Below, in pieces: positions 3,269 through 59,253 of a stretch of DNA of 64,000 nucleotides. Source of the DNA: Eledone cirrhosa (lineage: Eukaryota); assembly GCA_964016885.1 (NCBI GenBank), contig OZ024743.1, forward strand, positions 38,316,001-38,380,000, in the 5' to 3' direction. Positions within the stretch are counted from its first letter, which is position 1. Each line of letters opens with the position of its first letter. The position numbers and the translations under genes were made by a program. Under the pieces are notes generated by a model. The model ran no database searches. It was not told the DNA's origin and saw only the letters and a list, made by a program, of their open reading frames with translations.

Positions 3269-3306
<38 letters not shown>

Positions 3307-3313
<7 letters not shown>

Positions 3314-3667
3314 AAGTTAAATAAAAAGTCACATGATTAAAATTTAGCTTCGTTTATTACTGCTATATATATTTCAGTGACAGCCATCTTTGGCTGTGAC
3401 CTCTTCAGGCAGTTTGAATTAGTATGGTATAGACAAGTACATATGTTGTTGAGGTGTATAATATTGTCAATACTCTGATATGCATACTGGGCATATCAGA
3501 GTATTGACAATATTATACACCTCAACAACATATGTACTTGTCTATACCATACTAATTCAAACTGCCTGAAGAGGTCACAGCCAAATATGGCTGTCACTGA
3601 AATATATATAGCAGTAATAAACGAAGCTAAATTTTAATCATTTGACTTTTTATTTAACTTTATTTTA
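3307..3667. repeat. Near-perfect ~360-bp palindrome (inverted PLE pLTR pair)
   Basis: Arms 3307-3483 and 3491-3667 are reverse complements with about 2 mismatches and a 7-nt spacer ATACTGG; abuts (TA)n at 3272-3308. Confidence 0.95.
3561..3615 (+). ncRNA. Minimal type I hammerhead ribozyme (PLE type), intact core
   Basis: ACTGC-CTGAAGA-GGTcACAGCCA-AATA-TGGCTGTcACT-GAAA-TATATA-TA-GCAGT, followed by AATAAA; mirror copy on the minus strand at 3359-3413. Confidence 0.85.
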
Positions 3668-4780
3668 CACTACTCCGGAGTAACCAAACCAACCTGCGCA
3701 CCTCGTCCAGTGCTCCAGCCTGCATACTGAGGTGTTGGTATACAACCAACATAAACTCAAAATCTCTCTCTATATATATATAGAACTATGGAGATATAAA
3801 AGATACAGAAGCGAAAATGTGTTCTATTATTATTTCTGGCAATATTATAACAATATGACTCTCCCCAAATATATTTCTTCTAATATTTTTTCACTGATTC
3901 TGTGTATATCCAATGCATTTATCATAATTTCTGATTTGATATGGACATTTAACCGACATATCAATAAATTAGGATTACATTAATTCAAACTGCATTGCTG
4001 CTGTTAAAGATATAATATTCAATTGATTTGAGGCAAACATAGCCTACAGAGAATTGTTGAAGCTAGAGCAATGAGTCCATATTTAACTATGTTTAAAATA
4101 TGACATTTAAAATAACTATGGTTTCTTGAGTAAAGTTTCGTCTTTATCTGCTGTGAATGTCACCCACTAAATCACTTTTACTCTTAACACCTGGCAGACA
4201 ATACCTCGGCTTGTCAATTACTAACGTTTTCTTCTGCAACCGGTATTTCACCTGCCTTCCCTACAATAGGCCTTCCCAACAATACATGGAAGTGTCTTGC
4301 ATCGAAATAATCTAAAGTTTATTCATCTCTAAACCTTGCAGGCATTTTCAAATGATTGGCTAGAGTAATTTACTTGAGTGCCTTTCTTGAAGGTGAAAAC
4401 ATAAATATAGCGCTCTTGAGATTATATTTGTAAATTATACTCAGATTGTTCTCACATATGACCACGGAAATCTGTCCAAATATCTCCGGTGGTATAATTT
4501 GTTCAGATTCTAACTAGACTTCTACACATTGGCTACAACAACGAAGTAACGTTTGGCAGGAAACATGTACAACTTATTTTACAAATGTACTTGGTTACTG
4601 TCGGGTTGAACATGAGAGTTATCTACAACTATAATGATTACATACTAAAATGTGAAAATTTAAGAACATATTTTAAGCATTGTCAAAACGATAAAAATAC
4701 AGAGAAAATGATGACGATATAAAGTCTATATCATCATTTTCTCTGAATATTTCCAAGATTCTAACTCTGGGCTCTGTGAT

Positions 4781-14544: not shown

Positions 14545-15750
14545 AGATATAAAAATAATTCAATCGAGGCAAGACATATATAGAAGAATAACGTATAATA
14601 AAAAAAATAACATCAATAATAAAATATATATGGTAAATAGGTAGAGAAGTTACAGATGTCAAAAGTAAAAAAAGTAAATATAAGATAGGAAACATTAAAA
14701 AGGTAAGAAAATAAGAAAATGGAAAATATAAATAAATAAATAAGGATAAGTGAGAGCATGTAAGTACAGAGTATGTTTGTGGTGGTTGTGACTAAGTGTT
14801 CTTATAAGGATTCTTTGGTGGGTTTAGTGCTAACATGAAAAACTAAATTCAAAATATACATAGATACGTGTAGAGAGTCCGATGTAGTGACAGATAAAAG
14901 AAAAAAAAGAAAAAAAGCAATAAATTAGAGATTAATTGGGGAATACGAGTATGAGATTTAAGGGCTAGGGGTGGATTGTGAAGGGATGTTTGACAAACGT
15001 GTGTTGTAAATGTTTTGCTGATTGTTCTATCTTAATGGGGTTGATGTTTTTTCAGGGAGAGAGGGTGCAAGAAATGTTCAGAGATTTATGATCCAATGAC
15101 CAGTTGGCCGTTTGAGAGCTAATAGCAGTGTGATGGTGTGTATTTTATATGATAAAATCTAGGTGGTTCAGTTCTAATTTTGGGATTGCTGGTTCAAATC
15201 ATGGTGGTTTGTAGTTTATGAATCTGGTAGCTATTTTATGTCTACAGAAAATTGATCCTTCTATTTTGCTGTTAAGCAGCATCCCATCGTACCTTAAAAT
15301 ATGGAGTAGTTCTAAATTAGAAAGTCCGCAGTGGGACATTCCGTTGCTGTATGCCCTTGCTATCGATCATTTTGACCAGCTAATCTCATATTCTTGGTTT
15401 TTGTTTTTAAGTTGCCAGATTTTATTGGCAAACATCAAGAGTCCTCCAGTCTACTGTTCTTTATGGAGTGTCTGTGGACGTACCACATTTGCTTGAACTC
15501 CCCAGCCATGGAACCTATGTAGTGCCAAGTAGAGTGGCCTGAATTTACAGTACACAGGTACACCATACACGAATCCAGGCATCTATTATGTAGACCCCTT
15601 ATATATATATATATATCCAGGGAGTGTAACTTGGGGTTACTGTAGGAGCACTCGAAGTTCAGTTTCACTTCAGTGTCGAGGTGTAGAGCTAGACAGAGTG
15701 TATTATAGTGAAATAAAATAGCAAGAACGAGTGGATACTCCTTCATTACT

Positions 15751-15958
15751 TTTATTGGTTGGTGACGCGCGTTTCGCCACTGAGCAGCTCAAAGTTCGGT
15801 CTGTATCGATGTGACCCAACTCTGTAATCCGCAGCTCGTCATTTTTCCATTACCATTACAAGGGGTCTGACGAGCCACGGATTACAGAGTCGGGTCAGAT
15901 CGATACAGATCAAACCTTGAGCTGATCAGTGGCGAAAAGCGCATCGCCAACCAATAAA
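15751..15958. repeat. Inverted repeat of a PLE pLTR containing a hammerhead
   Basis: Arms 15751-15841 and 15868-15958, 26-nt spacer, moderately diverged; lies between (TA)n tracts. Confidence 0.9.
15864..15948 (+). ncRNA. Hammerhead motif with 50-nt stem II insertion
   Basis: GGT-CTGACGA-GCCAC-[50 nt]-GTGGC-GAAA-AGCGCA-TC-GCC; the mirror arm retains canonical GAAA-CGCGCG-TC-ACC. Confidence 0.75.
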
Positions 15959-15982
15959 CGTAATCGTCCCTGTTATTTTATT

Positions 15983-16069
<87 letters not shown>

Positions 16070-16074
<5 letters not shown>

Positions 16075-16272
16075 CGAAGGAAATGTGGTAAGGAACCAGA
16101 TGGACCATACGGCACCAAAGTACTCAATACTTAGGGTAGTAGAGTGGGTAATAGGATCGAGTAGGACCCCGACGGCTGAGCTCAAGCCGTTTCGACGGAT
16201 AATTCTGGACTACCAAGTCCAGAATTAGCCGTCGAAACGGCTTGAGCTCAGCCGTCGGGGTCCTACTCGTTT
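16070..16272. mobile_element. PLE-derived fold-back element (54-bp-arm hairpin 16158-16269), same family as 52388-52580
   Basis: Near-perfect hairpin with ACCA loop; each arm contains the hammerhead 3' half GAAA-CGGCTTGAGCTCAGCCG-TC; embedded in (TA)n. Confidence 0.75.
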
Positions 16273-17589
16273 CTATATATATATATATATATATAGTGCA
16301 TTCGTGTAGTGTTTGTTATGTAAGTGCGATTCAGGCAAAGGTAAGAATATTAAGCTACAGGGAGCTGACAGAGAGAAGCGAAAATATGATAGTATGCATT
16401 AAACCTGATAAAACATGTTAACAAAGGTTATATGTTTTCTCTATTATTGTTCGTTATGGTGAAGTTATATGTGTAGAAAAATGAGCGTGTAAGAATTAAT
16501 GTTAGAAATATAATTAGGGTTAGTATTAGAGTTTGAATTAAGATTAGGATTAGTGTTAATATATTTGCCGTGATCGGTCAATATAGGTAAGTGGCCCATA
16601 CTAAGCTAACACCATATGTATATATACATATTTATATATGTATATATAAATATATATATATACATATATGTATGTATATATATATATAAATATACGTATA
16701 TATATATATAAATATACACATATTCCTGGCTCTTGTTTAATATTTTCTTGGCCTTTTGAGAGGGCTATATCTGAAAGGGTGGGCGAGTAACAGCTCGTTT
16801 GACTTGGCATTAGCTATCTCACTTACCAGCTACTACCACATCACCTGGACAACAACAGAAACCACCACAACACCATGAACAAAAGCAGATTCCACACCAT
16901 TACCAATAATCACATCAACAAGTGTCGTAACAGAAATGGCAACAACGAGAGCCATTAATAGTGTCACCAATTTAGTAGTCGGGACTTAAACAACCATAAC
17001 AACAACAGCAACATGAACAGTAGCTATGACAAAAACCGCAACAAAAAAAGCAACTCATATATGAAAACAAACATAGAAATAACCCCAATCTACAAATGTA
17101 TTAACACCATCATCACCATCTGCACACCTACCACCGCCAACACGAATAACACAAAACAAGAACAACAAAAGAATTAACACGAAGAGAACATCCCTTCATT
17201 TAGAATGTTCATGCTGATGCAATGGACATAATCTTGCAAGAAAACATCGACGACTCTAAGTTGAATTGCTGTGTTCATGCTGTGTTTGTTTTGTGTCCTA
17301 CGGGAATCATTTGTTTAACTATTATACAAATATACTTGAAATAGCAATTGGCCTTATTTACAGTGTGTAAGATTTCTCCAATAGGGCAATTGTTAATCCA
17401 TGGATATGTTGATTTCTATTCTGATACATGTAATGACTAATCTAATGATAACTTTAAAGAAGTTGGTCTTAAGGACAGCATTAATGGATAGCACATTGAA
17501 CCAACTGTTATTTGGTGAAGCAGGCAAATCCTAGCGTATTCTTACCACATGGACACCTACAAAAAAAAAAAAGAAAAAAATCGTCATTA

Positions 17590-24334: not shown

Positions 24335-27300
24335 AAAAAAAAAAAAAAAAAAGAAAACCCCGTGACAAAGAAATACCGGGATGGCGGCAGGCGGGGAATA
24401 GCCGTGTCTCTAGGGGAGAACGACCCCTCTAGTCTTGGTTGACACTCGTTCTAGAAGTGGTAACACGAAATGATTACCCCTTGGCGGATAAGGATAAAAC
24501 GCGACAAAATAAAGTAAATGACTAATGATAAAATCTCATACCGGATCGGCCGTCACCCGGGTAAAAAAGGGCCGCGTCCCTCAGAGAGGAACCAGACTGG
24601 GGTCGAAAAATCAGCTAATGGTTCAAACCTTCCCATCACTTCGGAGCTGGAGACCTCCCATAACCGGAATACTCCTACCGTTGGCCCTCCATGCTCACCA
24701 CCAAGAAATCCAAAGAAAAAGAGAGAAAAATGGTCAAGGGAAGATAATTAAGAAGTCCTTGAGGCTTTCTACACTGCCATGTACTACCCATCAAATACAT
24801 CGAATACAGAACAGACATATATCAACTGGAAAAAGAAACATCCCGAAAACAGAGGCTATATTGACAGTAACAAACTCGCCAATATACGAAGAAATATTGT
24901 AAGAAAAAAGTTACTAACTGATATAGAAATTGATCAGATCAAGCTATTAGCACAAAGTCAGCGAAGGGAAAATGAAACATGTGTCAGTGAAAACGAGGTA
25001 AATTGTAACACTTCGAATCCCAGGGTTGGGGCGGAATCACTGGCAACAGAACAAATTAAAGAAAGGATGGAAAAAGTGGTGGGAGTGCATGCTCAGGATG
25101 AAACTCCAAATGAAAATAATGAGATCGTAAATGATAAAGAAATGAATGAGAATGAACTTGCCAGCTTGAAGGATGAAATTATTATCGAATGGATGAAAAT
25201 GAAAGAATCTGACATGGGGCAACAGGATACACCCTCCCTAAGATCCAGAACTCCACACAGAACCAAAAGATAATACAGAAGACTAACATGATTCTCAAAA
25301 ACATTATCATCACAAACAAACTAAACATTACTGATTTAAATCATCTCCATTATGCATCGGCTAAAGTCACCACTCACTTATGTGGTGTGAAGATGAAAAA
25401 ACAAAGCAATTCCCACAAGAAATCTACTTGGCAAGAGAACATCAATCGCCAAATAAACCTTCTCCGATCTGACATAGAAATTTTAACAAACTATAAAGTA
25501 GGTGAACATGTTAAACAAACTAAACTTAGAAAATTGAAAAGAAAGTACAGTATAAAATCAACAAGTGACATAGACATGCTGATAGAAATAATCAAGCAAA
25601 AAGTGTCGGCCAAAGTTGCTCGTATAAGGCGCTTTGAAAAACCATCTAGATTCTATAAGGACAATAATATGTTCAAAAACAACCAAAGAAACTTCTACAG
25701 AAAAATTGGTAAGTCAGCAATAACTGCTTAATCAATACCACCCAAGGAGGAAGTGCAAGAATTCTTGGAAAAGATCTGGGCCGAAGAAAAAGTTCATAAC
25801 ATACATGCCCCATGGATAGACAGACAAATGAAAGATACAGTTCACCTTGAGGAACAAATATGGGAAAATATAACAGTTGAACAGTTGCGCTTGCCTCTAA
25901 GAAAAACCAGCAAATGGAAATCCCCAGGAAAAGACAAAATACAAATGTTTTGGATAAATACCTTCACAGAGTCTCATGAGCTGTTAGCCCAACTTTACAA
26001 TGAAATAGTTAAGGAGCCAGAAAATATGCCATTATGGCTAGTTAACGGCATTACATTCCTGCTTCCGAAGAATGATGAGACAAACAATCCCAAAAATTAC
26101 AGACCGATAACTTGCTTGACCACAATGTATAAAATGTTAACATCAGTCCTAACTGAATACACATATGACCACCTGATAACAAATAACCTATTTCCCATTG
26201 AGCAGAACGGGTGTAAACGAGGCTCATATGGCTGTAAGGATCAGATTTTGGTTAACAAAATGATACTGGAAGATTGTCATAATAGACACAAAAATCTATC
26301 GATTGCTTGGATAGATTATAAAAAATCATTTGATAGTTTGCCACACAGTTGGATTGAAAAATGTTTAGATATTTTCAAAATATCCCCCGTTGTCAGGAGG
26401 TTTGTGTCATTCAGTATGAAGACATGGAAAACGACACTCCTTATGAATAGTGAAACAAAATCACTGGAAGCTGGAGAAGTGAATATTAATTGTGGAATTT
26501 TTCAGTGTGACTCTTTATCACCGCTTTTATTCTGCATCGCACTTATACCATTAAGTAAAATGCTCAATGAAACAAAACATGGATATAAAGTCTATGACAA
26601 AACCATTAATCACTTGTTCTACATGGATGACCTGAAACTATTTACAAAAAATGATGAACAATTGCAAGGGCTATTATCCACTGTGGAGCAGTTCAGTGAT
26701 GACATTAAAATGGAGTTTGGACTAGATAAATGCGCCAAAGCAACGTTCACCAGAGGAAAGCTGCTGAAGAGTTCAGACATTAATCTTGATCGGGGGAACG
26801 TGATAAGAGAACTTGATCAAGAAAAAACTTACAAATATCTAGGTGTTTGTGAAGTAGACGGAATTAAGCACTCGACAATGAGGGAAAGGATAAGGAAGTA
26901 ATGTTACCGCAGAGTAAGAGCAATCTCAAGAACGCAATTGAATGCAAGGAATAGGATCGATGCCATAAACACGCTTGCCATACCAGTAGTAACCTACAGT
27001 TACAATGTCATCAACAGGTCAAGCACAGAGATCCGTAGGTTCGATACAAAAATTCGAAAATTCTTAACCATGCACAGAATGCATCACCCTAAGGCAGATA
27101 TAGATAGAATACATCTCCCTAGGAAAGAAGGAGGACGTGGGTTAATCCAGTTAGACATTGCGTTGAAAACTGCAACAATTGGATTATCTACATATCTAAG
27201 GGAATCACATGATTGGATGATCAAACTCGTTTTGAAACACGAAAGCATCAAAAGATCATATTCAATTACAAAAGATACACAAAGATACAGTAATGGACTA

Positions 27301-28314
27301 CAAATATCAGAAGTCCCATTTACTGCTGAAATGGAAAACACAGAAAAAGCAAAGCAGGTAAAAGTAACTGCAAAGAGAGAATTGCTACAGAAACTGGCTA
27401 AGAAATGGCAAGAAAAGCCTCTGTATGGAAAATACCCAGAACGAGCTAACAATCCTGATGTTGACAAAACTTTCACCCATCAGTGGTTGGCATCCTCTGG
27501 ACTGAAATCGGAGACTGAAGGACTGATTATATCAGCACAAGATCAGTGTCTGCCAACAAAAAATTACGAAGACAACATAATAAAAAATGGATGCAGCCCA
27601 TTATGCCGTGTATGCAAAAAACAATCAGAGACCATTGATCATATAATTTCAATGTGCAGTCCTATAGCTCCAACGGAATACCTAAACAGGCATGACAGAG
27701 CTGCACAATACATACATTGGATAATGTGTAAGCATTTTGACCTGCCCCATCAAAAGAATTGGTGGGAGCATCAACCACCTCCCATACTTGAAAAAGATCA
27801 CATCTCAATCTTGTGGAACTTTAGCATCCAAACAGACCGAAAAATAGATGCAAATAGACCTGATATAATATTGAAGGACTTTAAAAAGAGGGTATGCCTG
27901 CTAATTGATATGTCCGTTCCAATAGACAAGAATGTATCTATAAAAACATTTGAAAAATTGAGCAAGTATAAGGACCTGGAGATAGAAATTGTAAAAATGT
28001 GGAAATTGAGAACTAAAACAATACCAGTGGTTGTAGGGGCTCTGGGAATGATACCTAAGAGGGCTAATGGTTACTTATCGCAAATCCCAGGAAACCCCGC
28101 GTATAGGAGAAATACAAAATATAGTACTAATGGGAACTGCCCATATACTAAGGAAGATTCTGTCAATATAAGTACATCACAAGTCTAAACACTAAAGATG
28201 CATGTGTGAGTATGTATGTTCTTTCTTGAACATGGCGGACCTTGTTGTCTCTTGAGGTCACTGGTTGTGACTTGGTGATAACTCGTATGAACATAAAGCA
28301 AGATAAATGCAACT

Positions 28315-28402: not shown

Positions 28403-31400
28403 ATTCTTTATTAACCACAAGGGTTTACATAAAGTAGACATTAAGGACAGTGCCGGACAATACAGGACGGTACAAATGGGCATTTCTGCGTGTAAAAAAC
28501 AAAAACAGAGGATGTAACAAAAAAATAACAATGAAAATTAACCAATAGGGGGAGACTTCGGAGGGAAATTTGTGGAGAAAGCCCAGTAAAAGGCCACAGT
28601 GACCCTGACCACCAAGGCAAGTGCCCTCTCCCAGTTTTCCACCTTTAATTTACAGATATATACTCAGAGTAGACCCATTCACTCGGACCATTCTTGCTTC
28701 TCTCACCCATCTTTCAACAAAATGCTGGGAAGAGAGCATTTCCCACTCTACTCTGATTTTCCTTTTCAAATGAAATTTGAAAAATTCAATCAGAGCATCA
28801 CCGCAGAGGTAAGTGCTCGTCTTCAGCCCTTTCAAACGTGTCCACCATACTATCTCTTTCGCCATGGCCACCAGACAGATAAAAACTGCCTGACCTTCCC
28901 GGCTAAAGGAGGAGGGCGGGGCAATCCTCACGATGGACTCAGATGATAGCCGGATCCGTCCTACACGCGACAGCAGGTGTTCGACATAAACCCACAAGTC
29001 AGCAATTTTCGGACACTGGAGGAGTGCGTGGTCGGACGGTTTCGTCGCCCTGCGCGCATCTCGGACATGTCCGGCTGACGGCACCTCCATGCCTGTAAAG
29101 TTTATCCCGAACTGGCAAGGCTCCTCGGTAGCACTGCCAGGTCAGAGATTTCTGGAAGTTGTCCATAGGCCCTGGCCCGAAAGTTCTTCCGAAGAGATTG
29201 GCTAGTTGATTTTCGTCGACGCCTAGAGTTTCCCCAAGTACGTCGTCGCTCTTCCCCTCCACTAATCCTCTATAGAACGCCGAGGTGGAGTTTCCACCGA
29301 TCACATTGCCCGATTGGTCGAGGGCTGTGAGCGCCTGAAGACATTCCAGTCTCCAGGCGCTCCCTCTCGGTCTTCGCTTGATCCGTGACTGCAGCTCCGT
29401 CAAGGAAACGAGCTGGGGAAATACGCGTCTAGCAAACGGCGACCGCACCTGATCACCGTCGAGGAAGAGGTGGAGATGTCGTAGCCTGAGCGCGTGCCTG
29501 CGCATCATCAGCCACGGCATGCCCAGCCATCCACGTAGCGGGTGTTAACAACAGATGGACCGCCTGACCATCGGAGCGCGTCCCTTCCACAAAAAGCGAA
29601 AGAGCAAACGCTCCAGCGCAGTCAGGCGAGGCTTAGGACAAGGTACGACGGTCAGGCGGTAGCAGATGACAGACGCGATGTACGCGTTAGCCACCTCCGC
29701 TCGACCTTTCAGGGATCGCTTCCTCTCCGCCCATTTCTGGGTGAGAGAAGCCAACCTGCTCGTCACCTCGTCCCAGTTTTTGTCCGTCTGGAGGTCCGGA
29801 CTGAACCAGACCCCTAGCAATTTAACCGGTCCGTCCGTCCAGCGTCTGACGACGCTGTTGGACGGCATGGACCTGCCTCTCCAGGTGCCGAGCTGCAGGC
29901 CCACTGGCTTTACCTGGTTGATCATTGCTCCTGTCACCGATTCGTATTCTTTTAGTGTAGTGCCGATCGCCTCGATGTGTTTGGCGTTCGACACCACTAC
30001 GGTGACATCGTCCGCATATGCTGACACGGATCTTCCGCATCCTAGTTCGCGCGGGACGCCCCTCAACGTCTCCAGTTTGTGCAGTAATGGCTCGAGAGTC
30101 AATACGTACAAGAGGGACGAGAGGGGACATCCTTGGCGGACCGAGCGCATGATGTTGAACGGTTCCGACAGGTGACCGTTCACTCTCACTACAGAGCAGA
30201 TGTGCATGGCAGCGATCCAGCCTCTGAAGACGGGCCCAAAGCCAGCCGCCCTCAGGACTGCCGCCAGGTAACGATGGTCGACCCTATCGAAGGCTTTCGA
30301 CTGATCTAAATTGATCAAAGACCCACCCGTGCCAGGTTCCCTAGCTACCCTCTCTACGATGTATCGCATGAGGTGGAGGCTGTCGTGGATGGATCTGTCG
30401 GGAATGGCGCATGTCTGTGCCTCTCTCACCAGACCACCAACGACAAGCGCCAACCTCTTTGCTAGCACCTTGGCCAAAATCTTGAACTCTGTGTTTAGCA
30501 GAGTTATGGGCCTAAAATTATCTATGTTATCCCCCTTGTTCGGATCCTTTCTCAGTAGCGCCACCGCTCCTCGGCTCACAGAGCCGGGAATTCTCCCGTT
30601 CTGTTGCCAGTTGCAGTAGACGTCCGCCAAGAGGCCTCCGAACAAGTTTGGCATTTGTACGTAAAGTTCATAGGGCAGACCATCCAAACCAGGCGATTTA
30701 CCCCTTTTGCAACTAGTTATTGCGTCCCGTACTTCAGCGGTTGTTATCGGCTTTTCGCAACACTGCTCCACAGTGGCCGAAAGCCGCGGCAGTCCATCGA
30801 GGTAGACACTAAAGTCCATCCCTCGATCCGGCCCGCCACTGCCCCCGAACAGTTGAGCGAAGTGTCGCTGAAAAGCTTCACACATTTGCCTGGGATCGAG
30901 TAGCATGCGCCCGTCGTGGTCCACCAAAGACCGGATCGTGGCTTTGTTGCCACGGCGCGCCTCCGCCACTCGGGCCCATTGAACGGCTTTCGTCCCCTAG
31001 TGTCTGAGAGCACGCACCCTGTCTCTGACAACGCAGCCTTCGTGCTTTGCATTGAAGAATTGGTCAAGGGCCAATTTCGCCTCAAGCACGTCGGTCGCGA
31101 TGCCTTTGCTAAGCGCCTCATCTAATTTTCTAACTAATTCTCCCTCTGCTCTATTTTTCTCTATTGCTAAAGTCTTACTAAACCTAATGGACTCTATTCT
31201 AATTGCTCTTTTCAGAGCAAACCACCACTTGTTGTTGACGATGGCCCCTGTCAACGCCCGCTTAACTAGTTCGCTAATCCGGTCTCTGTAGGCCTTGCGC
31301 TCTGGTAAGGACGCGTTTAGCTTCCAGTAGCCGGGTACTCGTCTATGAAGCCTATCTAAGTCAAGCACACAGATCACGAATTTGTGGTCCGTGTAGCTGA

Positions 31401-34400
31401 CTATCTTGAATTGTGGACAGCCTATGCTAGACCTATCTATTTCCCTACAAAATACTCTATCTAGATATGATCTGGATGACCTTATGCGATTTGTCCAAGT
31501 CCACATTGGCACATTCGGGAAATCCAATCGGTACCTGTCAGACAGTTCAAAACGCCTGAGCAGGTTGGTGAGGCCCTACACCCTCCACCCCTATCCGCTA
31601 ATCCCACACAGTCCCAGCGTGCATTTAAGATCCCGTTCCAGTCGCCCACTAACACTAAAGAGCGGGACGTTCCAAGAAAGGTCTCCAGACGCCGGAAGAA
31701 ATCAGGCCGCCCTGCTCCTGTCGGGGCATAGACAGTCACTAGCCTGAAAGCTTGTCCGTCTGCTGGTCACGTCCAACACCACCAGCTTACCCTCTGGGTC
31801 CAGGAAGATGGCCCGTATGGCGAGATCCAAACCTCTCCGAAAAAGCACAGCAACTCCTCCCCCCGATCCAGGACGGCTGGGAGATGCGTACACCTCGTAG
31901 CCGCCAAAGATCGGTGCGAAGGCCAGTGCTTCGGAGATTCTGGTCTCGCTGATGGCCACTACATCTATGTTTAGTGACCTGAGGTCGTTGAGCAGGTGGC
32001 CCTGCTTCCATGACGACCCCAAGCCACGCGCATTTATGCTGCCTATTCTGAGTGAGGTCCTGTTTAAAATAAAGTGGAAAAGATGGGAAAGACCACTTAC
32101 CGTACTTTTGGTAGAGGAGGGATGATTTTTACATCCCTTTTCACTTGATCGTCTGTTGAAGTGACCGTTGAATCGTCCCTTCGGCTGGTCGTCGGCTCTT
32201 CTAAGAGAATGTCTGAATATACTCTTCGATTGATAGTTCCTCCTAGGTCCCTGAAATCACCAACTGCGTTGGGGAATTTCGTTTTAATGTTTGTGTATTG
32301 TTTCTGTGCTATTTTTAGCAGTCTTATGTTAGTTGGCGTTTTGATTGGTGCTGGTATAATGTAGTCGTGTTGTGAAATGTCTGTGTGTTCAATTATGTAA
32401 GTCATTAGTTTCTTGTTGTGTGTATTTATTGCCGTGCATTTGTTTTTCTGGGGGTGGGGTGTGGTTCTGCTATTTTCTTGTCGTTGTTGCTGGGTGTGTG
32501 TGTTTTGTTGTTGTGTTTGCGATGTTGGTGCTTGTGGTGGTGGTGTTGAAGGTGTTGTTGGCGGTGGGGTTGTCGCCGGTGGTGATGGTGGTGCTAGTGT
32601 GGGTGGTGATGGTGTTGGTGGTGTTGCTGCTGTGAGTCTCTTTGCAGTAGACTTTACCCTTTTCTCATTTCTTTCCTCCCTTTTCAAAGGCGACGATGCG
32701 CTGCTTCTGCGTTTGTGCCTTCTTAGGACCTTTTGCCATCCCTCTCCCACCTCACACTCCATGTCTGATTCTGTGAGGTCGGGGAGGGGTACCAGCTCCA
32801 CTCTTTCACTTGTTGTTGTTGGTGATGTTTGCACTGGAGTCTCTGTTGCAGCTGCATTTGGTATTGCTGTTGTTGTTGTTAATATTTCCACTGCTGCTGC
32901 TGTTTTAGATTTCCGTGGCGTGGGTATGGGTGCCACGGACCTATCGTTCCTGGTTGCCGCTTGTCCTGTTGCTGGTAGCCGTGGAGCCGGTTTCGGAAGG
33001 AGGGTGGTTTTCTCCTTTCTCAGGGTCTTCTCGTTGCAGAAGGCCCTAAGGCGAGTCTTCGATCCACAGCGAAAGCATTTCGGGCGTTTGCCCTCAACAC
33101 TTATGGGCAGTTGAGTGCCGTTATCGAAGTCTATCACATCCGGGATAGCTTCGATGCACTCCTGGTTGGTTTGGATTAGCATCTCAATGGAGGTGCCGAC
33201 CCAATCTTCTCTTACTTTTTTCTGTACTTGCAGTAGAGTTGTTTTGTCCTCGATTCCGACGAGGACAGACGCGGCCAGCCAAGAAGGGGCCATTCCGGGG
33301 GGGACGTGGGTCAGTTTGACCCTCACAATTTTTTGCCCGCAGTAGGAGGGCACCAACACCATTTCCTCGCTCCTTAGGGTCACTACGGATTGGGCCTTTG
33401 CCTCCTGGGGTGTGGCAAAAAGTACGGTGGCATTTTTATTTGCCTCGGGTGATGTGCGTTTTCCGCTGCCACACAGACCACAAGGCTTTTTGTATTTGAG
33501 CCTCTGTGGATCTTTCCACCCTACGGGATTTTGTACTTACTGTACGGTACGTGACCGTACAGTGCTGTTGGGTTTCGAAAAATTTGTCCGCTGCCTTGCA
33601 GATTGATCGGTGTCCATTCTTTGTCACCATCTTCTTCGCTTCCTCTAATTCCTCATTTGTTATGAGGATTGTTTCCAAGTTTTTCGCAATACCTGCAAAT
33701 GAGATTGGTTTTTCTTTGCTGCTGTTGTTGTTGTTGTCGTCAGAGCTGCTGGTACTTTTGTTGTTGCTGCAGGTACTACGACTACTGCCTCCGCCGCTGT
33801 TGCTGTGGTTGTTGTTGGTGTTGCTGCTGCTAATGATGTTGTTGTTTATGCTGCTGGTGATGCTGTTGCGGCTGCTACTGTTGTTTTCATTGTCACTGTT
33901 GCTGTTGTTATTACGGCTGCTACTGCTATTATTCCTGACGTCAGACGAATGAACTGGGTTTTCGTATTTCCCGCACACCTGTTTCGTCGCTGTCGTCGTC
34001 GTCGTGGAGAAACCTTGCACGCTTTGCACGAGACTTTTCTTTTCTTTCGTCGCTTGCGAAAGAGAAGGGAGGGAGAGAGACACATTTAAAGAAGGGAGGG
34101 AGAGAGACAATCTTCTCTCTGCTGTAGTGATGATTGAGGAAGAAGAAGACGGAATGAGTGGGAGTGACCTATGAAATTTCTTTTTCGTAGCCATGTTGTT
34201 TTTTTTTGTTTAAAATAAATATTGGGTACATAACCCCAATAAGCAGTTATTTAACCCCGAAGGGCCAAATAACGGGCAGAAATACCCCTCTCACGAGGAG
34301 GAGGGTGTTTTTGTCTACAAGTTGGTCTGAGTTTTAAACAATTTACAATTGTTATAGCGTTCAAAATTTACAGTACCTTACAGAGCCGAGCCTCCGTCAA

Positions 34401-34410
34401 CCATAGCATT
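28401..34410 (-). mobile_element. Full-length Tx1/L1-clade LINE, copy A (defective)
   Basis: ORF1 34194-32097 (frameshift near 33430, knuckle CFRCGSKTRLRAFC). ORF2 has APE endonuclease (VVAISET, GDWN, SYLDRVF, TDHK), RT (FRPITLLN, DQSKAFD, QGCPLS, AYADD) and C-terminal CPRC..ET..HA..C. AATAAA then (ATT)n. Confidence 0.93.
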
Positions 34411-34420
34411 CAATAATAAA

Positions 34421-34450
<30 letters not shown>

Positions 34451-34451
<1 letters not shown>

Positions 34452-37400
34452 TTTTCTTTATTAACCACAAGGGTTTACATCAAGTAGACATTAAGGACAG
34501 TACAGGACAATACAGGACGGTACAAATGGGCATTTCTGCGTGTAAAAAAAAACAGAGGATGAAATAAAATAACAAAGAAAAATGCCCCAACAGGGGGGAG
34601 ACTTCCGAGGGACATTTGTGGAGAAAGCCCATTAAAAGACCACAGTGGCCCTGACCACAAAGGCAAGTGCCCTCTCCCAGTTTTCCACCTTTAATTTACA
34701 GACACATACTCAGAGAAGGCCCATTCATTCGGGCCATACTTGCTTCTCTCACCCATCTTTCAACAAAATGCTGGGAAGAGAGCACTTCCCTCTCTACCCT
34801 GATTTTCCTTTTCAGATGAAATTTGAAAAACTTAATCAGGGCATCAACTAAGAGGTAAGTGCTCGTCTTCAGCCCTTTCAAACGTGTCCACCATACTATC
34901 TCTTTCACCATGGCCACCAGACAGATAAAAACTGCCTGCCCTTCCCGGCTAAAGGAAGAGCGCGGGTCAATCCTCACGATGGACTCAGCTGATAGCTGGA
35001 TCCGTCCTACACGTGACAGCAGGTGTTCGACATAAACCCACAAGTCAGCAATGCTCGGACACTGGACCAGTGCGTGCAGGACGGTTTCGTCGCCCTGTGC
35101 GCATCTCGGACATGCCCGGCTGACGGCACCTCCATGCCTGTAAAGTTTATCCCGAACTGGCAAAGCACCCCGGTAACACTGCCAGGCCAGGGATTTTTGG
35201 AAGTTGTCCATAGGCCCCGGCCCGAAAGTCCTTCCGAAGAGATTGACTAGTTGATTTTCGTCGACGCCTAGAGTTTCCCCAAGTACGTCGTCGCTCTTCC
35301 CCTCCACTAATCCCCTATAGAACGCCAAGGTGGAGTTTCCACCGATCACATTGCCCGATTGGTCGAGGGCTGTGAGCGCCTGAAGACATTCCAGTCTCCA
35401 AGCGCTCCCTCTCGGTCTTCGCTTGACCCAGGACTGCAGCTCCGTCAAGGAGACGAGCTGGGGAAAAACGTGTCTAGCAAACGGCGACCACACCTGATCA
35501 CCGTCGAGGAAGAGGTGGAGATGTCGTAGCCTGAGCGCGTGTCTGCGCATCATCAGCCACGGCATGCCCAGCCATCCACGTAGCTGGTGTTGACAGCAGA
35601 TGGACCGCCTGACCATCGGAGCGCGTCCCTTCCACAAGAAGCGAAAGAGCAAACGCTCCAGCGCAGTCAGGCGGGGCTTAGGACAAGGTACGACGGTCAG
35701 GCGGTAGTAGATGACAGACGCGATGTACGCGTTAGCCACCTCCGCTCGACCTTTCAGGGATAGCTTCCTCTCAGCCCATTTCTGGGTGAAAGAAGCCGCC
35801 CTGCTCGTCACCTCGTCCCAGTTTTTGTGCGTCTGGAGGTCTGGACCGAACCAGACCCTTAGCAATTTAACCGGTCCGTCCGTCCAGCGCCCGACGACGC
35901 TGTTGGACGGCATGGACCTGCCTCTCCAGGTGCCGAGCTGCAGGCCCACTGACTTTTTCTGGTTGATCATTGCTCCTGTCACCGCTTCGTATTCTCTTAG
36001 TGTAGTGCCGATCGCCTCGATGTGTTTGGCATTCGACACCACTACGGTGACATCGTCGGCATATACTGACACGGATCTTCCGCATCCTAGTTCGCGCGGG
36101 ATCCACCTCAACGTCTCCAGTTTGTGCAGTAATGGCTCAAGAGTCAATACGTACAATAGGGACGAGAGGGGACATCCTTGGCGGACCGAGCGCATGATGT
36201 TGAACGGTTCCGAAAGGTGACGGTTCACTCTCACTACAGAGCAGATGTGCATGGCAGCGATCCAGCCTCTGAAGACGGGCCCAAAGCCAGCCGCCCTCAG
36301 GACTGCCGCCAGGTAACGATGGTCGACCCTATCGAAGGCTTTCGACTGATCTAAATTGATCAAAGACCCACCCGTGCCAGGTTCCCTAGCTACCCTCTCT
36401 ACGATGTATCGCATGAGGTGGAGGCTGTCGTGGATGGATCTGTCGGGAATGGCGCATGTCTGTGCCTCTCTCACCAGACCACCAACGACAAGCGCCAACC
36501 TCTTTGCTAGCACCTTGGCCAAAATCTTGAACTCTGTGTTTAGCAGAGTTATGGGCCTAAAATTATCTATGATATCCCCCTTGTTCGGATCCTTTCTCAG
36601 TAACGCCACCGCTCCTCGGCTCACAGAGCCGGGAATTCTCCCGTTCTGTTGCCAGTTGCAGTAGACGTCCGCCAAGAGGCCTCCGAACAAGTTTGGCATT
36701 TGTACGTAAAGTTCATAGGGCAGACCATCCAAACCAGGCGATTTACCCCTTGTGCAACCTAGTCATTGCGTCCCGTACTTCAGCGGTTGTTATCGGCTTT
36801 TCGCAACACTGCGCCTCAGTGGCCGAAAGCCGCGGCAGTCCATCGAGGTAGACACTAAAGTCCATCCCTCGATCCGGCCCGCCACTGCCCCCGAACATTT
36901 GAGCGAAGTGTCGCTGAAAAGCTTCACACATTTGCCCGGGATCGAGTAGCATGCGCCCGTCGTGGTCCACCAAAGACCGGATCGTGGCTTTGTTGCCACG
37001 GCGCGCCTCCGCCACTCGGGCCCATTGAACGGCTTTCGTCCCCTAGTGTCTGAGAGCACGCACCCTGTCTCTGACAACGCAGCCTTCGTGCTTTGCATTG
37101 AAGAATTGGTCAAGGGCCAATTTCGCCTCAAGCACGTCGGTCGCGATGCCTTTGCTAAGCGCCTCATCTAATTTTCTAACTAATTCTCCCTCTGCTCTAT
37201 TTTTCTCTATTGCTAAAGTCTTACTAAACCTAATGGACTCTATTCTAATTGCTCTTTTCAGAGCAAACCACCACTTGTTGTTGACGATGGCCCCCGTCAA
37301 CGCCCGCTTAACTAGTTCGCTAATCCGGTCTCTGTAGGCATTGCGCGCTGGTAAGGACGCGTTTAGCTTCCAGTAGCCGGGTACTCGTCTATGAAGCCTA

Positions 37401-40355
37401 TCTAAGTCAAGCACACAGATCACGAATTTGTGGTCCGTGTAGCTGACTATCTTGAATTGTGGACAGCCTATGCTAGACCTATCTATTTCCCTACAAAATA
37501 CTCTATCTAGATATGATCTGGATGACCTTATGCGATTTGTCCAAGTCCACATTGGTACATTCGGGAAATCCTTTCGGTACCTGTCAGACAGTTCAAAACG
37601 TCTGAGCAGGTTGGTGAGACTCTTGCACCCTCCTTCCCTATCCACTAATCCCACACAATCCCAGCGTGCATCTAAGATCCCGTTCCAGTCGCCCACTAAC
37701 ACTAAAGAGCGGGACTCTCCAAGAAAGGTCTCCAGACGCCGGAAAAATCAGGCCGCCGTGCTCCTGTCGGGGCATAGACGCCCACTAACCTGAAAGCTTG
37801 CCCGTCTCCGCTGGTCACGTTCAGCACCACCAACTTACGTTCTGGGTCCAGGAAGATGGCCCGTATGGCAAGATCCAAACCTCTCCGAAAAAGCACAGCA
37901 ACTCCTCCCCCCGATCCTGGACGGCTGGGAGATGCGTACACATCGTAGCCGCCGAAGATCGGTGCAAAAGCCTGTGCTTCGGAGATTCTGGTCTCGCTGA
38001 TGGCCACTACATCTATGTTTAGTGACCTGAGGTCGTTGAGCAGGTGGCCCTGCTTCCATGACGACCCCAAGCCACGCGCATTTATGCTGCCTATTCTGAG
38101 TGAGGTCATGTTGAAAAGGAGTGGAAAAGATGGGAAAGACCACTTACCTTACTTCTCGTAGGGGAAGGACGGTTTTTCCATCCTTTTCACTGCTTGTGGC
38201 CTCCTCAGGAAGGATGTCCTTATAAATCCTCCTGGAGAGTGCTTGTCGGAAGTCTCCGATGTCTTTTGGGAATTTTTGTTTTAGTGTCATGTAGGTTTTC
38301 TGTGTGATGCGAGTGATTTGTATGTGTGGGGGTGGTGTGAATTTTGGGGTTGTTGTGTAGTCTTTTTCTGTGATGCTGGTGTTGTGTTGGATGTAGTGTA
38401 ATAATTGCTTGTTGTTCAAATTTAATGCTGTGTAGTGTGTATCGTTTTGGTTGTTTTGTTTTGTTTGCGTTTGTTGTAGGTTTGTTTCTGTTTCGCATTT
38501 TGGTGACTTTTGTGGTGTAGGTGATGGTTGTGTTGGGGTTAATGATGGTGATGGTGTTGGTGTTTGGGTTGATGGGGTTGGTGATGCTGGTGTGGATGGT
38601 GGCATATCTGTCCTAACTTTTTTGTTTTTTAATTTATTTGTTTCCCTCTCTATTTTGTTTTTGGAGGGGGAAGGAAGAGAATTTTTTTCTTTTTTGGTTT
38701 CTTTTTTTTTTATCCGGATATCGTTTCCCACTCCTCGTCGTCACAAACTGTCTCCAGTTGTGATAGGCCGGGGAGTGGAAAATCCTCCACAGGCGTTAGT
38801 TTTGGTTGTGGCGTGGTGGATGGTGTAGGCGCTGGTGCTAGTTCTGAAGTGTTGGGTGGTGGTGGTGTTGGTTTTGCTGGTGGTGGTGGTGTTGGTTTTG
38901 CTGGTGGTGGTGGTGGTGTTGGTTTTGCTACTGTTGCTGGGGCTGTTGCTGTTATAGTTGCTTCTGTTGTTGCTACTACAGTTGTTGCTGTCATCTCTGC
39001 TACTGGTGGTGTTGATGGTTGTGTCACTGGGGTGGGTAGGAGATGTGGCCTCAACCTTTTAGCCTGAGGGCAGAAAGCCCTTAGGTGGGTTCCTTCACCA
39101 CAAACGACACACCTAGGTCTTCTGCCCTCGACAATTACCGTGAGGTGGCTGCCGTCAGTGAGGTCTATTACCTCTGGGATCTCCTCAATGCTTTTTTGGT
39201 CCGCTTGGATCAGGAGCTCCATCCCAGATCCGGACCAGCTCTCCTGCTTTTCTTTTGCTATTGCTATTATTTTTGTGTTGGCTTCGATGCCGGCGAGGAC
39301 GGCCGCTGTTAGCCAGGGAATTTCGATGGCTGGTGGAACGTGGGTCACCCTGATCTTTACGAGTCTCTGGCCACAATAGCTTGGTACGAGTGTGAAGTCG
39401 TCACTTCTTAATGGGGCCATGGAGTGTTCTCTAGCCTCCTCTGGTGTTTCAAAGAACACGTCCACGGTTCCATACTTTTGCCCACGTCTGATGTGGGTTT
39501 TTTTTGCCCACATATGTCCCAAAGCTTTTTTGGATTTGGGACTCGGATGCCCGTTCCACTCGGCGCGATTTTACCTTTATTGTTCGATACGACACGGTGC
39601 ATAGGCGCCGATGCTCCATTTTATTAGGTGGGGGGGGGGGGAGGCTGACCCTGTACCCATCTTTCTTTACCATTTGTTTGGCATTTTCTAAATCCTCCTG
39701 AGTTACCGTAAATGCTTCGAACTGTTTTGCTACTCTGGCGATACTGAGGGTGGGTTTTATAATGTCATTGTTGTTGTTGTTGCTCTCGTTATTTGTGTTA
39801 ATATTAATTTTAGTTTCAGTTGTGGTGGTGGTGACGTCAGTCGTCTTTGGTGGGGAAGAGTCCATTTTGCTTGATTTCATTTCGACATCACGAGCTAATT
39901 TATTTTTTTCTTCTTTTGTTTCTGTTGTCGCGGTGGCAGTGGGGGTGGTGGTGGAGGCTTTAACACCTGCAGTCATTGGCAATGGCGGGAAATGAATGTC
40001 TGCCTGAGACAAATTTAAAATATTGCTACTGCTTATATTTTTTTTGTGTTGGCAAACGTAGTAACATTTACAATGGTGGTGTCGGTGTGAGGTGTTAATT
40101 TGTGAGGAAGGCTTTCAGCTGCTTGGTGCAGACGTGAATTAGCCATTTTTTTTCAAAGAAATTTTTTGATAATAATAAAAATTTTAATTTTGGGCACAAG
40201 GCACCAATCCTTTTGGGTGTCCTTTTCGGAAAACAATGTATGTGCGCTTATATATGGTTAACAATCAAAATTTTCCATAAATGGCAATTTTTAACAAACG
40301 GAAATAACAAACCTTTGCGGAGCTCACGATGATACGATTTACTACGTAAGTCGCC
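34451..40355 (-). mobile_element. Full-length Tx1/L1-clade LINE, copy B (defective)
   Basis: ORF1 ~40146-38144 (frameshifted; CCHC knuckle CVVCGEGTHLRAFC). ORF2 38109-34696 starts MTSLRIGSINARG, with a 678-aa open RT/C-terminal part. Flanked by (TAA)n on both sides. Confidence 0.93.
34696..38109 (-). pseudogene. Tx1 ORF2 (APE endonuclease-reverse transcriptase), disrupted
   Basis: Frameshifts near 37745 and 36750, in-frame TAG at 37045-37043. Confidence 0.9.
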
Positions 40356-52387: not shown

Positions 52388-52580
52388 AACGAAAAAGTGT
52401 GGTAAGGAACCAGATGGACCATAATACACCAGAGTGCTCAATACTTAGGGTAGTAGAGTGGCTAATAGGAAAATGTTTAACCGCGACGGCAGAGCTCAGG
52501 CCGTTTCGATGGTTATTTCTGTATAGAATTAGCCGTCGAAAGGGCCTGAGCTCTGCCGTCGGGGTTAAACATTTTCTTAT
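52388..52580. mobile_element. PLE-derived fold-back element (hairpin 52465-52580), same family as 16070-16272
   Basis: Shared GTGGTAAGGAACCAGATGGACCATA...TCAATACTTAGGGTAGTAGAGTGG flank and hammerhead half-site; embedded in (TA)n. Confidence 0.75.
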
Positions 52581-57019: not shown

Positions 57020-58735
57020 TCTATTTATTTGCCACCAGGGCATCAGAGATTGGGACAAATACAAAGGGGGGAGTTTACATACATTTAAAAAGACGTGTAA
57101 AAAACATATAACACATTAAATTTAACAATCGATGTCCTCAATAGGGAGAGGCGTTGACATGGGTCGCACAAACCCCCGAAAAAATGTGCAACCCTCCTCT
57201 TCAGGAGCACAAAGAGCGGGTGCTTCCTTCCTCTTCTCATTCTTCTCCTCTCTCACCTACAGGCTGATATAGAGAGAAGGCCCATTCACTCGGGCCATTC
57301 TCGCTACTTTCACCCATCTTTCATAAAACTTGCTGGGATAGAGCACCTCTCTCTCAATTCTGATCCTGCTTCTAAAGTGGTACTTGAAAAAAAAGACCAG
57401 TTGTTGGCCGGAGAGAAAGGTGTCTGACCTGAGCCCTTTCAACCTTGTCCACCATACAACTTCTTTCGCCATGGCTATCACACAGAGGAAAACCGCCTCT
57501 CCTTCGTTTTTGAAAGGGGGAGGCGGTTTGATCGTGACCATGTTCTCGGTGGTCAACCGGATTGGTCCCACCCGCGACAGTAGTCGTTCTACATAGCCCC
57601 ACAGGTCAGCAACACACGGGAAGTGTACGAATGCGTGTGCGACGGTTTCCTCGTCACGCACGCATCTTGGACAGATCTTCTTCGAGGGGTCCCTACCCGG
57701 GTGCCCGTGTCTGTAGAGCTTGTCCCGAACGGGTAGAGCTCCTGGGTAACATTGCCAAGCCAGGGACTTTTGGAAGTTGTCCATCGGTCCCGGGCCAAAC
57801 GTCCTACCGAACAGACTGGCCAGCTCGTCTTCCTCCATGCCTAGAGCCTCTCCGAGAGCGTCGTCGCACATACTGCGCACCAACCCTTTATAGAATGTTG
57901 ACGTTGAGTCTCCACTGATTGCCGGATCCGCTTGCCAGAGGGCCGTGAGCGCCTGGGCACATTCAATGTACCAGTCGCCCACTTTTCTCGGTCTTTGCTT
58001 GACCCAGGATTGCAGCTCGGTGAGTGAGACGAGTCTCGGAAAGGCTCGCCTCACAAACAGGGCCCACACCGGCTGACCGGTGAGGAATACCTGGAGGTGC
58101 CGTAGCCTTAATGCATGTCTACGCATCGTCAGCCACGGCATCCCAGCCCTCCGTTCGAAGGGTGTTGACAGCAGATGGATCTTCTAACCAAAGGAGCCCG
58201 CTTCTTCCAAAGAAATCGGAAGAGCGCGCGCTCCATTTTGGCGAGTGTTTTCTCTGGGCAAGGCACGACGGTCAAGCGGTAGTAGATGATGGACGCTATA
58301 TAAGCGTTCGCCACCTCAGCTCGACCTTTCAGGGATAGTTTGCACTCGGACCACTTCTGGGCGAGTGCAAAGGGCTTGCCCGTTACCTCGTCCCAGTTTT
58401 TCTCCACCTGGAGGTCCGGTCCGAACCAGACCCCGAGCAGCTTCACCGGTCCCTCCGTCCAGCGTCCGACGATGCCGTCGGAGGGCATCGTTTTGCCCCT
58501 CCACGTCCCGAGTTGCAAACCGACGGACTTGTCCCGGTTCAGCTTGGCTCCTGTAAACCTTTCATATTCCAGTAAGGTGCCGATCTGCCCGATTTCCGAG
58601 GCGCACGACACCATTACTGTCACGTCATCGGCGTAGGCCGACACTGCTTTCCGCAATCCCGGTTCCAAGGGGATGCCCTGCAACAGCTCCAGCTTCCGCA
58701 GTAGTGGCTCCTGAGCCAGCACATACAACAGTCTC
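57020..58735 (-). mobile_element. 5'-truncated Tx1/L1-clade LINE (diverged relative of copies A/B)
   Basis: SAYADDVTV, GLQLGTWRG, LSLKGRAEVANAYIAS, GPMDNFQKSLAWQCY, CPRC..ETVAHAF; AATAAA then an (AT)n end. Confidence 0.92.
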
Positions 58736-59253
58736 AATATTGGGTTGCTCAGGAAATCAGTAATTGCATAGTGTACGTTCGTAAATATGGGATTTCTTGT
58801 AATGTTCTTCTTTTATAATATATAAATTTTTTTTTAATGTAAAATAAAATTATTATTAGATTCCCCAGTTGCTGTATCAATATGAATCACTTACAATAAA
58901 ATTTCGCCGGGGATAAAGTACCAACATTTAATAGGCGGTTGTCGTGTGGGGTTGGAATGAAAACCAGGAGAAGGGGGATATTAGAAACACATTCTGACAA
59001 ATTAATTAGCAGGGGGTGGGGACGATTATTAAAGACCTGAGAGTACGTGAATTATTGATGGACGTAAGAATACCTGAGTAGAATTTAAATATCCATTTAT
59101 TATAGATAAGCCTTGTTACTCTGAAGTCTCACCTGCGTACTCACAGGATCATAAGACAAGACTGGTCATACTGTAAGTGCACACTTGAAATTTTAGAGGA
59201 ACAGAGCTCACCAATAGCCATACAAAATGAATGTGTTTATATATATATATATA

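Follow-up and report, generated by a model that had tools for sequence, protein, structure and literature searches.

Palindromic insertions apparently derived from a Hydra-clade Penelope-like element in Eledone cirrhosa end within its predicted hammerhead ribozyme

Several described systems share traits with the hairpin repeat examined here. The closest are Penelope-like elements (PLEs) of the Hydra clade, including Hydra-1_Obim of Octopus bimaculoides, which, according to the accessible part of the study that lists them, possess a DKT motif, an RWK-like motif, a CxCX5C linker, and CxxC and CxH motifs within a C-terminal GIY-YIG endonuclease (EN) that has no CCHH; they insert in (TA)n, carry a hammerhead near the 3′ end, and display an inverted 5′-truncated copy at the head and a one-sided tail (PMC8557442). 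PAc, a Poseidon element of Anolis with an AT-rich target, resembles the present element in that both target strands are cut and extended in vitro and two reverse transcriptase (RT) start sites bracket the tail; its ribozyme, by the available portion of the report, is not needed for insertion, a further point of likeness (PMC11167929). The Penelope elements of Adineta vaga similarly have head-to-head pLTRs with palindromes at their junctions, as well as TATA- and Inr-like motifs within the pLTRs (PMC3846280, available sections). Cercyon of Schistosoma is comparable in its U3-A8 core, large helix II, palindromic loop III, and motif pairs that lie on opposite strands 100-700 bp apart (PMC4209133, available sections). 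In their accessible text, two of these sources describe the origin of tandem and inverted PLE ends, and the role of the hammerhead, as open (PMC8557442, PMC11167929). Head-to-head PLE ends, tails, pLTR hammerheads, U3-A8 cores, Octopus Hydra elements and the self-priming idea are thus already in print. A literature search that covered few subscription papers found no account of ribozyme-truncated fold-backs in PLEs, nor of twin priming or strong-stop DNA in these elements; the accessible part of a bioRxiv retrozyme paper concerns tandem retrozymes (10.64898/2026.07.22.740005).

The window, a 64,000-nt stretch of E. cirrhosa contig OZ024743.1, contains a hairpin whose inverted arms (16151-16211 and 16216-16276) are 61 nt each, display 95% complementarity and are spaced by 4 nt (Table 1). 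The hairpin is real, with a predicted folding energy of -116.8 kcal/mol (z = -19.9), a stability equaled by none of 200 shuffles. By its sequence features, it is best described as a 5′-truncated head-to-head insertion of a Hydra-clade PLE in (TA)n, within which any target-site duplication is unreadable. Positions in the element are numbered from the first A of AATTAGCC (position 0; window 16204, minus strand), the sense orientation of the tailed arm (16073-16212) being the minus strand. The A of an initiator-like TTAGTC is at 16211 (position -7), and the predicted ribozyme cut falls between 16171 and 16170; in the short arm, GAAA is at 16234-16237 and the cleavage C at 16256. The outer end of the tail is the putative distal RT start site, that of the short arm a probable proximal one, and in full-length units the tail runs on into the ORF leader. 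An Rfam scan of the window at E≤1 returned no hammerhead and only low-complexity miRNA-type matches, as expected because this copy holds half a ribozyme and lacks the 5′ half of the core. Contigs from two sequencing runs of a single study show joints and loose ends at 16216, and do not amount to independent support.

Table 1. Coordinates of the hairpin and its component parts in the window
Feature	Position	Strand	Basis or remark
(TA)n target microsatellite, left	15987..16069	.	sequence
PLE tail, about +54 to +131, left arm only	16073..16150	-	without partner in the other arm; 78 nt
Tailed (long) arm, hammerhead 3′ half, positions -8 to +53	16151..16212	-	arm mapping
Parent stem II, 3′ strand	16194..16212	-	comparison with parents
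GAAAC core half, stem III (palindromic GAGCTC loop), GUC cleavage triplet, stem I 3′ strand	16166..16193	-	
3-nt junction insert CCA, untemplated, forming the axis	16213..16215	+	absent from parents; varies from copy to copy
Short inverted arm, positions -7 to +53	16216..16276	+	arm mapping
(TA)n target microsatellite, right	16277..16295	.	sequence

The hairpin belongs to a very large family. A 203-nt query against the 3.0-Gb genome gave 3,292 first-look candidates, of which 40 were scored, all with at least 93% identity; the best 30 copies all reside in (TA)n, with the loop as their main point of difference. An exact two-arm pattern occurs at 12,477 loci, a lower bound on the number of fold-backs given that matching was exact, and a control pattern at none. 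Exact patterns anchored in the tail divide the family into subfamilies, with 7,594 loci for S2 (to which the window copy belongs), 2,312 for S1, and 2,779 for S3 and its relatives. The window holds another, more diverged fold-back of this PLE family at 52388-52580, which has a tail and an axis close to 52522 and is flanked by (TA)n. Elsewhere (L004, L035 and L038), copies are nested in other PLE-like fold-backs, at the centre or the (TA)n end, forming palindrome clusters.

Un-inverted parent copies were reached by way of a longer copy in L003, and 25 of 149 S2 copies read through into the parent. The parent unit is 3,531 nt, occurs in full length in head-to-tail arrays, and contains a 784-aa open frame with RT (YRDD) and C-terminal GIY-YIG (VIY..YIG) motifs that are kept in 12 homologues. 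A Pfam scan of this frame found no family, and the RT and endonuclease assignments are based on these motifs. A single ORF of this composition is characteristic of EN+ PLEs, as are the tandem or partial tandem units, the inverted 5′-truncated copy and the one-sided tail, all of which are present. The frame also contains, by eye, SDKT, RLRWR, CNCPDRSIC, CNLC and CKH, which, together with the preference for (TA)n, points to the Hydra clade, an assignment made by motif comparison rather than by RT tree. Neptune, an initial guess, was dropped after comparison with the Hydra motifs given in the accessible text of PMC8557442. At 3.5 kb, the unit is larger than the Hydra families listed there, most of which are below 3 kb (PMC8557442, available part).

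These parents also bear on an interpretation of the hairpin as a DNA-transposon MITE with terminal inverted repeats. Although the hairpin is short, palindromic, TA-flanked and present in high copy number, the repeat is not terminal, since a 78-nt tail lies outside it on one side, and its sequence comes from the 3′ end of a unit that encodes an RT; the MITE reading is refuted by the parent element and retains next to no probability, in agreement with the first-pass annotation.

The predicted ribozyme of the parent is of type I with an enlarged stem II, and consists, in order, of ACCCC, the core, G10.1, a stem II that has two parts and spans about 55 nt, GAAAC, a stem III whose loop is palindromic, GUC and GGGGU. 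The first-pass annotation had proposed that the hairpin contains the 3′ half of a PLE hammerhead with such an enlarged stem; its listed motifs (central stem, GAAA, stem III arms, TC and GGGGT) are indeed in place, and the ACCCC that it predicted as the 5′ strand of stem I is found in the parents. Its expectation of CTGANGA 5′ of the central stem did not hold, as none of 12 close-upstream matches is a parent. The S2 parent cores are instead TTGAGAA (12 of 25), CTGAGAA (12 of 25) and ATGAGAA (1 of 25), that of S1 is TTGACAA, and that of S3 is TTGATAA in 68 of 75 matches, by eye. The core is thus mostly UUGAnAA, departing from the canonical CUGAnGA, with N7 varying among C, G and T. The type I core features (3-8 pair, GAAA, A15.1-U16.1 and cleavage triplet) are present with the 3-8 pair as a U3-A8 variant, and are incomplete in the C3.A8 copies (12 of 25). 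CpG decay was ruled out as the origin of this unusual core, which is fixed in copies that are 98-99% identical. The CUGAGAA core, with its C3.A8 mismatch, occurs in half of the S2 parents (L129, L154 and others) and is mostly tied to one tail variant; conceivably, the ribozyme of this very successful lineage is inactive or cleaved in trans.

Across stems I-III, 90% of 441 cells are paired and 4 pairs show double changes, and lower stem II has three compensatory pairs between subfamilies; a covariation score as high was reached in none of 500 shuffles, although the sequences are related. The hammerhead fold is that of minimum free energy (MFE) in the young array L273, lies within 1.1-1.5 kcal of it in four S1/S2a copies, and trails it by as much as 15 kcal in decayed copies. 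Apical stem II (-20 to -11) is more variable between parent copies than its flanks. The 5′ strand of stem II in the parent differs from GACGGCTAATT, and therefore the perfect central stem of the hairpin is a product of inversion. The combination of a U3-A8 core with a stem II of about 55 nt departs from the canonical hammerheads of File S2, and the ribozyme differs from that of Hydra-1_Obim (PMC8557442, accessible sections). Unlike the Cercyon hammerheads, it has a full stem III and a two-part stem II, and half-ribozyme fold-backs are not described in the accessible part of that study (PMC4209133).

The two arms of the fold-backs appear to have arisen separately. In a comparison of 60 copies from contig 1, from which the nested junction L186 was left out, 24 have a tailed arm that extends further 5′, 25 a short arm that does so, and 11 two arms of equal reach; the short arm leads by at least 5 nt in 15. 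In L209, L212 and L238, for example, the tailed arm starts at the cut site, and the short arm reaches -6 to -10. Because it so often extends further 5′, the short arm is not a copy of the tailed cDNA. This contradicts snap-back, favored by the first-pass annotation and, in the available text, proposed as self-priming for A. vaga (PMC3846280), in which a single cDNA pauses after stem II and copies itself, with the junctions later eroded by breakage at the hairpin centre. Snap-back does predict the perfect arms and their membership in the same subfamily (all but one, L179, of 102), and many junctions are mini-hairpins with 3-6-nt loops, 2-3 of the 102 overlapping on the self-complementary loop AAAATTTT like true fold-overs. 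However, the same junctions are also found in mirror image, and +53, the outer end of 91 of 104 inverted short arms (+51 in 9), is also the 3′ end of kilobase-long copies, contradicting snap-back for long insertions. Fast erosion of palindrome centres after insertion is argued against solely by the tandemly duplicated copies L017 and L018, whose loops are identical. Altogether, we regard snap-back as improbable, and twin priming of the two arms as very probable.

Longer insertions display the same asymmetry of ends. Nine of 10 longer inverted pairs combine one tailed and one short end, the arm lengths being rough for divergent subfamilies. A 16-kb array ends at the short site (+53) and has a tailed inverted partner of 287 nt, and in L077 the short-start arm is at least 1.37 kb, with a tailed arm reaching only -99. 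The junctions themselves are diverse, with 94 distinct among 102 and the commonest seen 3 times; they comprise 59 inserts, 31 microhomologies and 12 blunt joints. Inserts include re-copied pieces of the arms and A/T runs, the latter being confined to one side in 9 of 11 cases (124 copies). In the window copy, -8 of the tailed arm is joined to -7 of the short arm with a 3-nt insert, and hence the ACCA at its centre is not the parent's loop; the A (16212) is templated, and the rest specific to this copy. The axis does lie in the stem II region, as had been noted. This diversity also bears on whether the fold-back is itself a self-propagating, non-autonomous SINE- or MITE-like unit that descends from a few hairpin masters and has a hypermutable centre. 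The very high copy number and uniform outer ends would suit such a unit, which nevertheless seems even less credible than snap-back in view of the distinct junctions, the separate fold-backs present for each parent subfamily, and the loops kept in duplicated copies.

Other observations concern what cDNA ends can do. Inspection by eye of the first 100 rows among 261 short-gap matches placed the fold at the cut site in about 25, and many others are centred on the stem III palindrome; self-complementary ends therefore do pair. In L360, unit positions 8-963 are followed by 6-148, with similar arrangements in L246 and L256, indicating that cDNAs can jump after stopping. L246 (1250-1900) also contains a tandem of ~280-nt units that run from -10 across the tail and into the beginning of the ORF; this repeat is retrozyme-like and lacks the 5′ ribozyme half. 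At the head of the array L276 (C1:91.47-91.49 Mb), ~50 near-perfect tandem copies of a 55-nt ORF piece precede the array, perhaps as a result of reiterative copying by the RT.

Both arms end at a sharp edge within stem II. The tailed arms were surveyed in 87 consecutive contig 1 copies, the first 87 listed of the 7,594 S2 loci, anchored downstream of the ribozyme. Read-through is seen in 10; otherwise, ends fall at -17 (1), -11 to -4 (47), -3 to +12 (14), +13 to +31 (3), +32 to +35 (9) and +36 to +39 (3). In the same contig 1 sample, all 60 short arms stop at or 3′ of -11. The S1 edge is at -7. In the scripted mapping no tailed arm among 30 passes it, though one reaches -8 by eye, and of 26 S1 short arms 24 do not extend past it; in S3, 8 of 14 arms end at -7/-6, with 3 further and 3 shorter. 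An A-stutter can mimic ends at -8 to -10. In all three subfamilies, most ends fall at or just 3′ of one initiator-like motif rather than at the loop: the 3,531-nt unit contains a single TYAGTY, whose A is at -7, and three TCAKTY, one of which has its A at -11. These motifs resemble the Drosophila initiator consensus, which may not be the consensus of the host. The predicted apical loop spans -17 to -11 in S2 and -24 to -19 in S3, where the stop is 12 nt 3′ of it; since the loop shifts between subfamilies, the edge tracks sequence, and a causal role for the loop that the first-pass annotation had placed at the axis is not supported. Stubs truncated inside the ribozyme dominate here, unlike in the Hydra families described in the accessible part of PMC8557442.

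Given twin priming, we think it fairly likely that the edge at -7 (or -11 in S2) marks the RNA start, or cap site, at an initiator-like A. This reading relies on the coincidence of the edge with a motif. An internal promoter with Inr and DPE has been described in the pLTR of D. virilis Penelope (PMC2377424, available sections); the present element contains no match to DPE, and a TATA-like stretch 29-31 nt upstream exists in S1 and young arrays and is absent in S3. By eye, a G that might derive from a cap directly precedes -7 in 6 of 13 cases. A splice acceptor at TTTAG was ruled out, as arms keep the AG and share no common upstream exon.

Twin priming may also be combined with a different kind of stop, namely a roadblock formed by structure or by a protein, cutting by a nuclease, or a 5′-3′ decay boundary in the enlarged stem II. 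The edge does lie within a conserved helix, the -11/-10 ends of S2 coincide with the 3′ edge of its predicted loop, which counts against a start site, and the putative cap, with no DPE or conserved TATA beside it, is read from sequence. However, the edge falls in a 3′ bulge in S3 and at an upper-stem mismatch in S2, the -11 edge is common only in S2, which has the second initiator-like motif, and a helix this weak and AU-rich seems unlikely to halt most cDNAs. A stop of any of these kinds is considered rather doubtful, and the start-site reading is preferred.

A minority of copies end at about +34, which would correspond to the ribozyme cut. Nine of the 15 ends within +13 to +39 fall on +32 to +35 (p = 7e-5), a cluster that GTC repeats near +31 may inflate. 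Copies whose tail runs into the ORF leader (45 matches, four of them from one array, with counts corrected by eye) start at the edge in 6 cases, at the cut site in 5, upstream in 27 and elsewhere in 7. The accessible portion of the PAc study reports no RNA reads ending at the cut site (PMC11167929), whereas genomic copies start there in the present family.

On balance, we lean toward a mechanism in which each stub consists of two cDNAs, primed separately, each of which runs off the 5′ end of the RNA, at a start inside stem II of the hammerhead, before the two are end-joined. The GIY-YIG endonuclease would nick both strands of (TA)n. One strand would prime at about +131/+134, the fixed outer end of the tailed arm, and the other at +53, the fixed end of the short arm. 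Each of the two cDNAs stops at -7 (-11 in S2), the presumed cap site, or just 3′ of it, apart from a minority that stop at +34, where the RNA may have been cleaved. The two 3′ ends would then be trimmed and joined by a repair process that could account for the microhomologies, the untemplated and templated inserts, and the A-stutter seen at junctions. Priming from two sites on both strands would fit the PAc biochemistry, as given in the available text (PMC11167929). The tail of ~78 nt is longer than the 30-40 nt of PAc, whose inverted arms are left unexplained and whose cDNA stops are unmapped in that part of the study (PMC11167929).

The proposed scheme has partial parallels among other retroelements. 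In L1 twin priming, two primers are provided by the two target strands; here, in contrast, both cDNAs would copy the same RNA segment, yielding duplication and not inversion. Retroviruses and LTR elements make minus-strand strong-stop DNA, a short cDNA that is primed near the RNA 5′ end and runs off; priming here would be from the target, with no tRNA primer. As a tentative extension, the element could follow a retrovirus-like cycle in which the ribozyme replaces the poly(A) site. The start inside stem II would disarm the 5′ copy of the ribozyme, and the intact ribozyme of the next repeat would cut the RNA 41 nt downstream of the start, so that it carries a terminal redundancy (R). Target-primed strong-stop cDNA made on the 5′ copy could then jump to the 3′ end to generate pLTRs and multi-unit tandems, and the 12,000+ hairpins would be untransferred strong-stop pairs.

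The window harbors further elements. The fold-back at 15745-15964, of which L289 is a second copy, belongs to another hammerhead family, one whose core is canonical and whose stem II is very long; the axis lies outside stem II, on the 5′ side of the core, and the sense arm starts at an initiator-like TCATTT, as judged from these two copies only. A third-family fold-back at 3300-3680 contains canonical CTGAAGA hammerheads on both strands (3372-3408 and 3566-3602), with its axis ~80 nt upstream of the core. Broken ORFs of non-LTR retrotransposons are found at 24752-28188 (+), 28650-40114 (-), 57257-58812 (-) and 61036-63041 (-); from their motifs, we take one to be of the restriction-like-endonuclease type, several to be L1/Tx1-like, and one to be RTE-like.

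With thousands of independent insertion junctions, this family allows self-priming to be told apart from twin priming and would make an unexplained PLE copying mechanism testable. Its cDNAs stop at two exact positions, the ribozyme cut site, which would be an indirect sign of cleavage in vivo, and a candidate start inside the ribozyme. If the retrovirus-like cycle is true, the hairpins would preserve a fossil record of both the cap site and the position of the ribozyme cut. The element has also seeded the genome with more than 12,000 near-perfect inverted repeats of 50-60 bp, which may be a source of double-stranded RNA for editing or small-RNA pathways.
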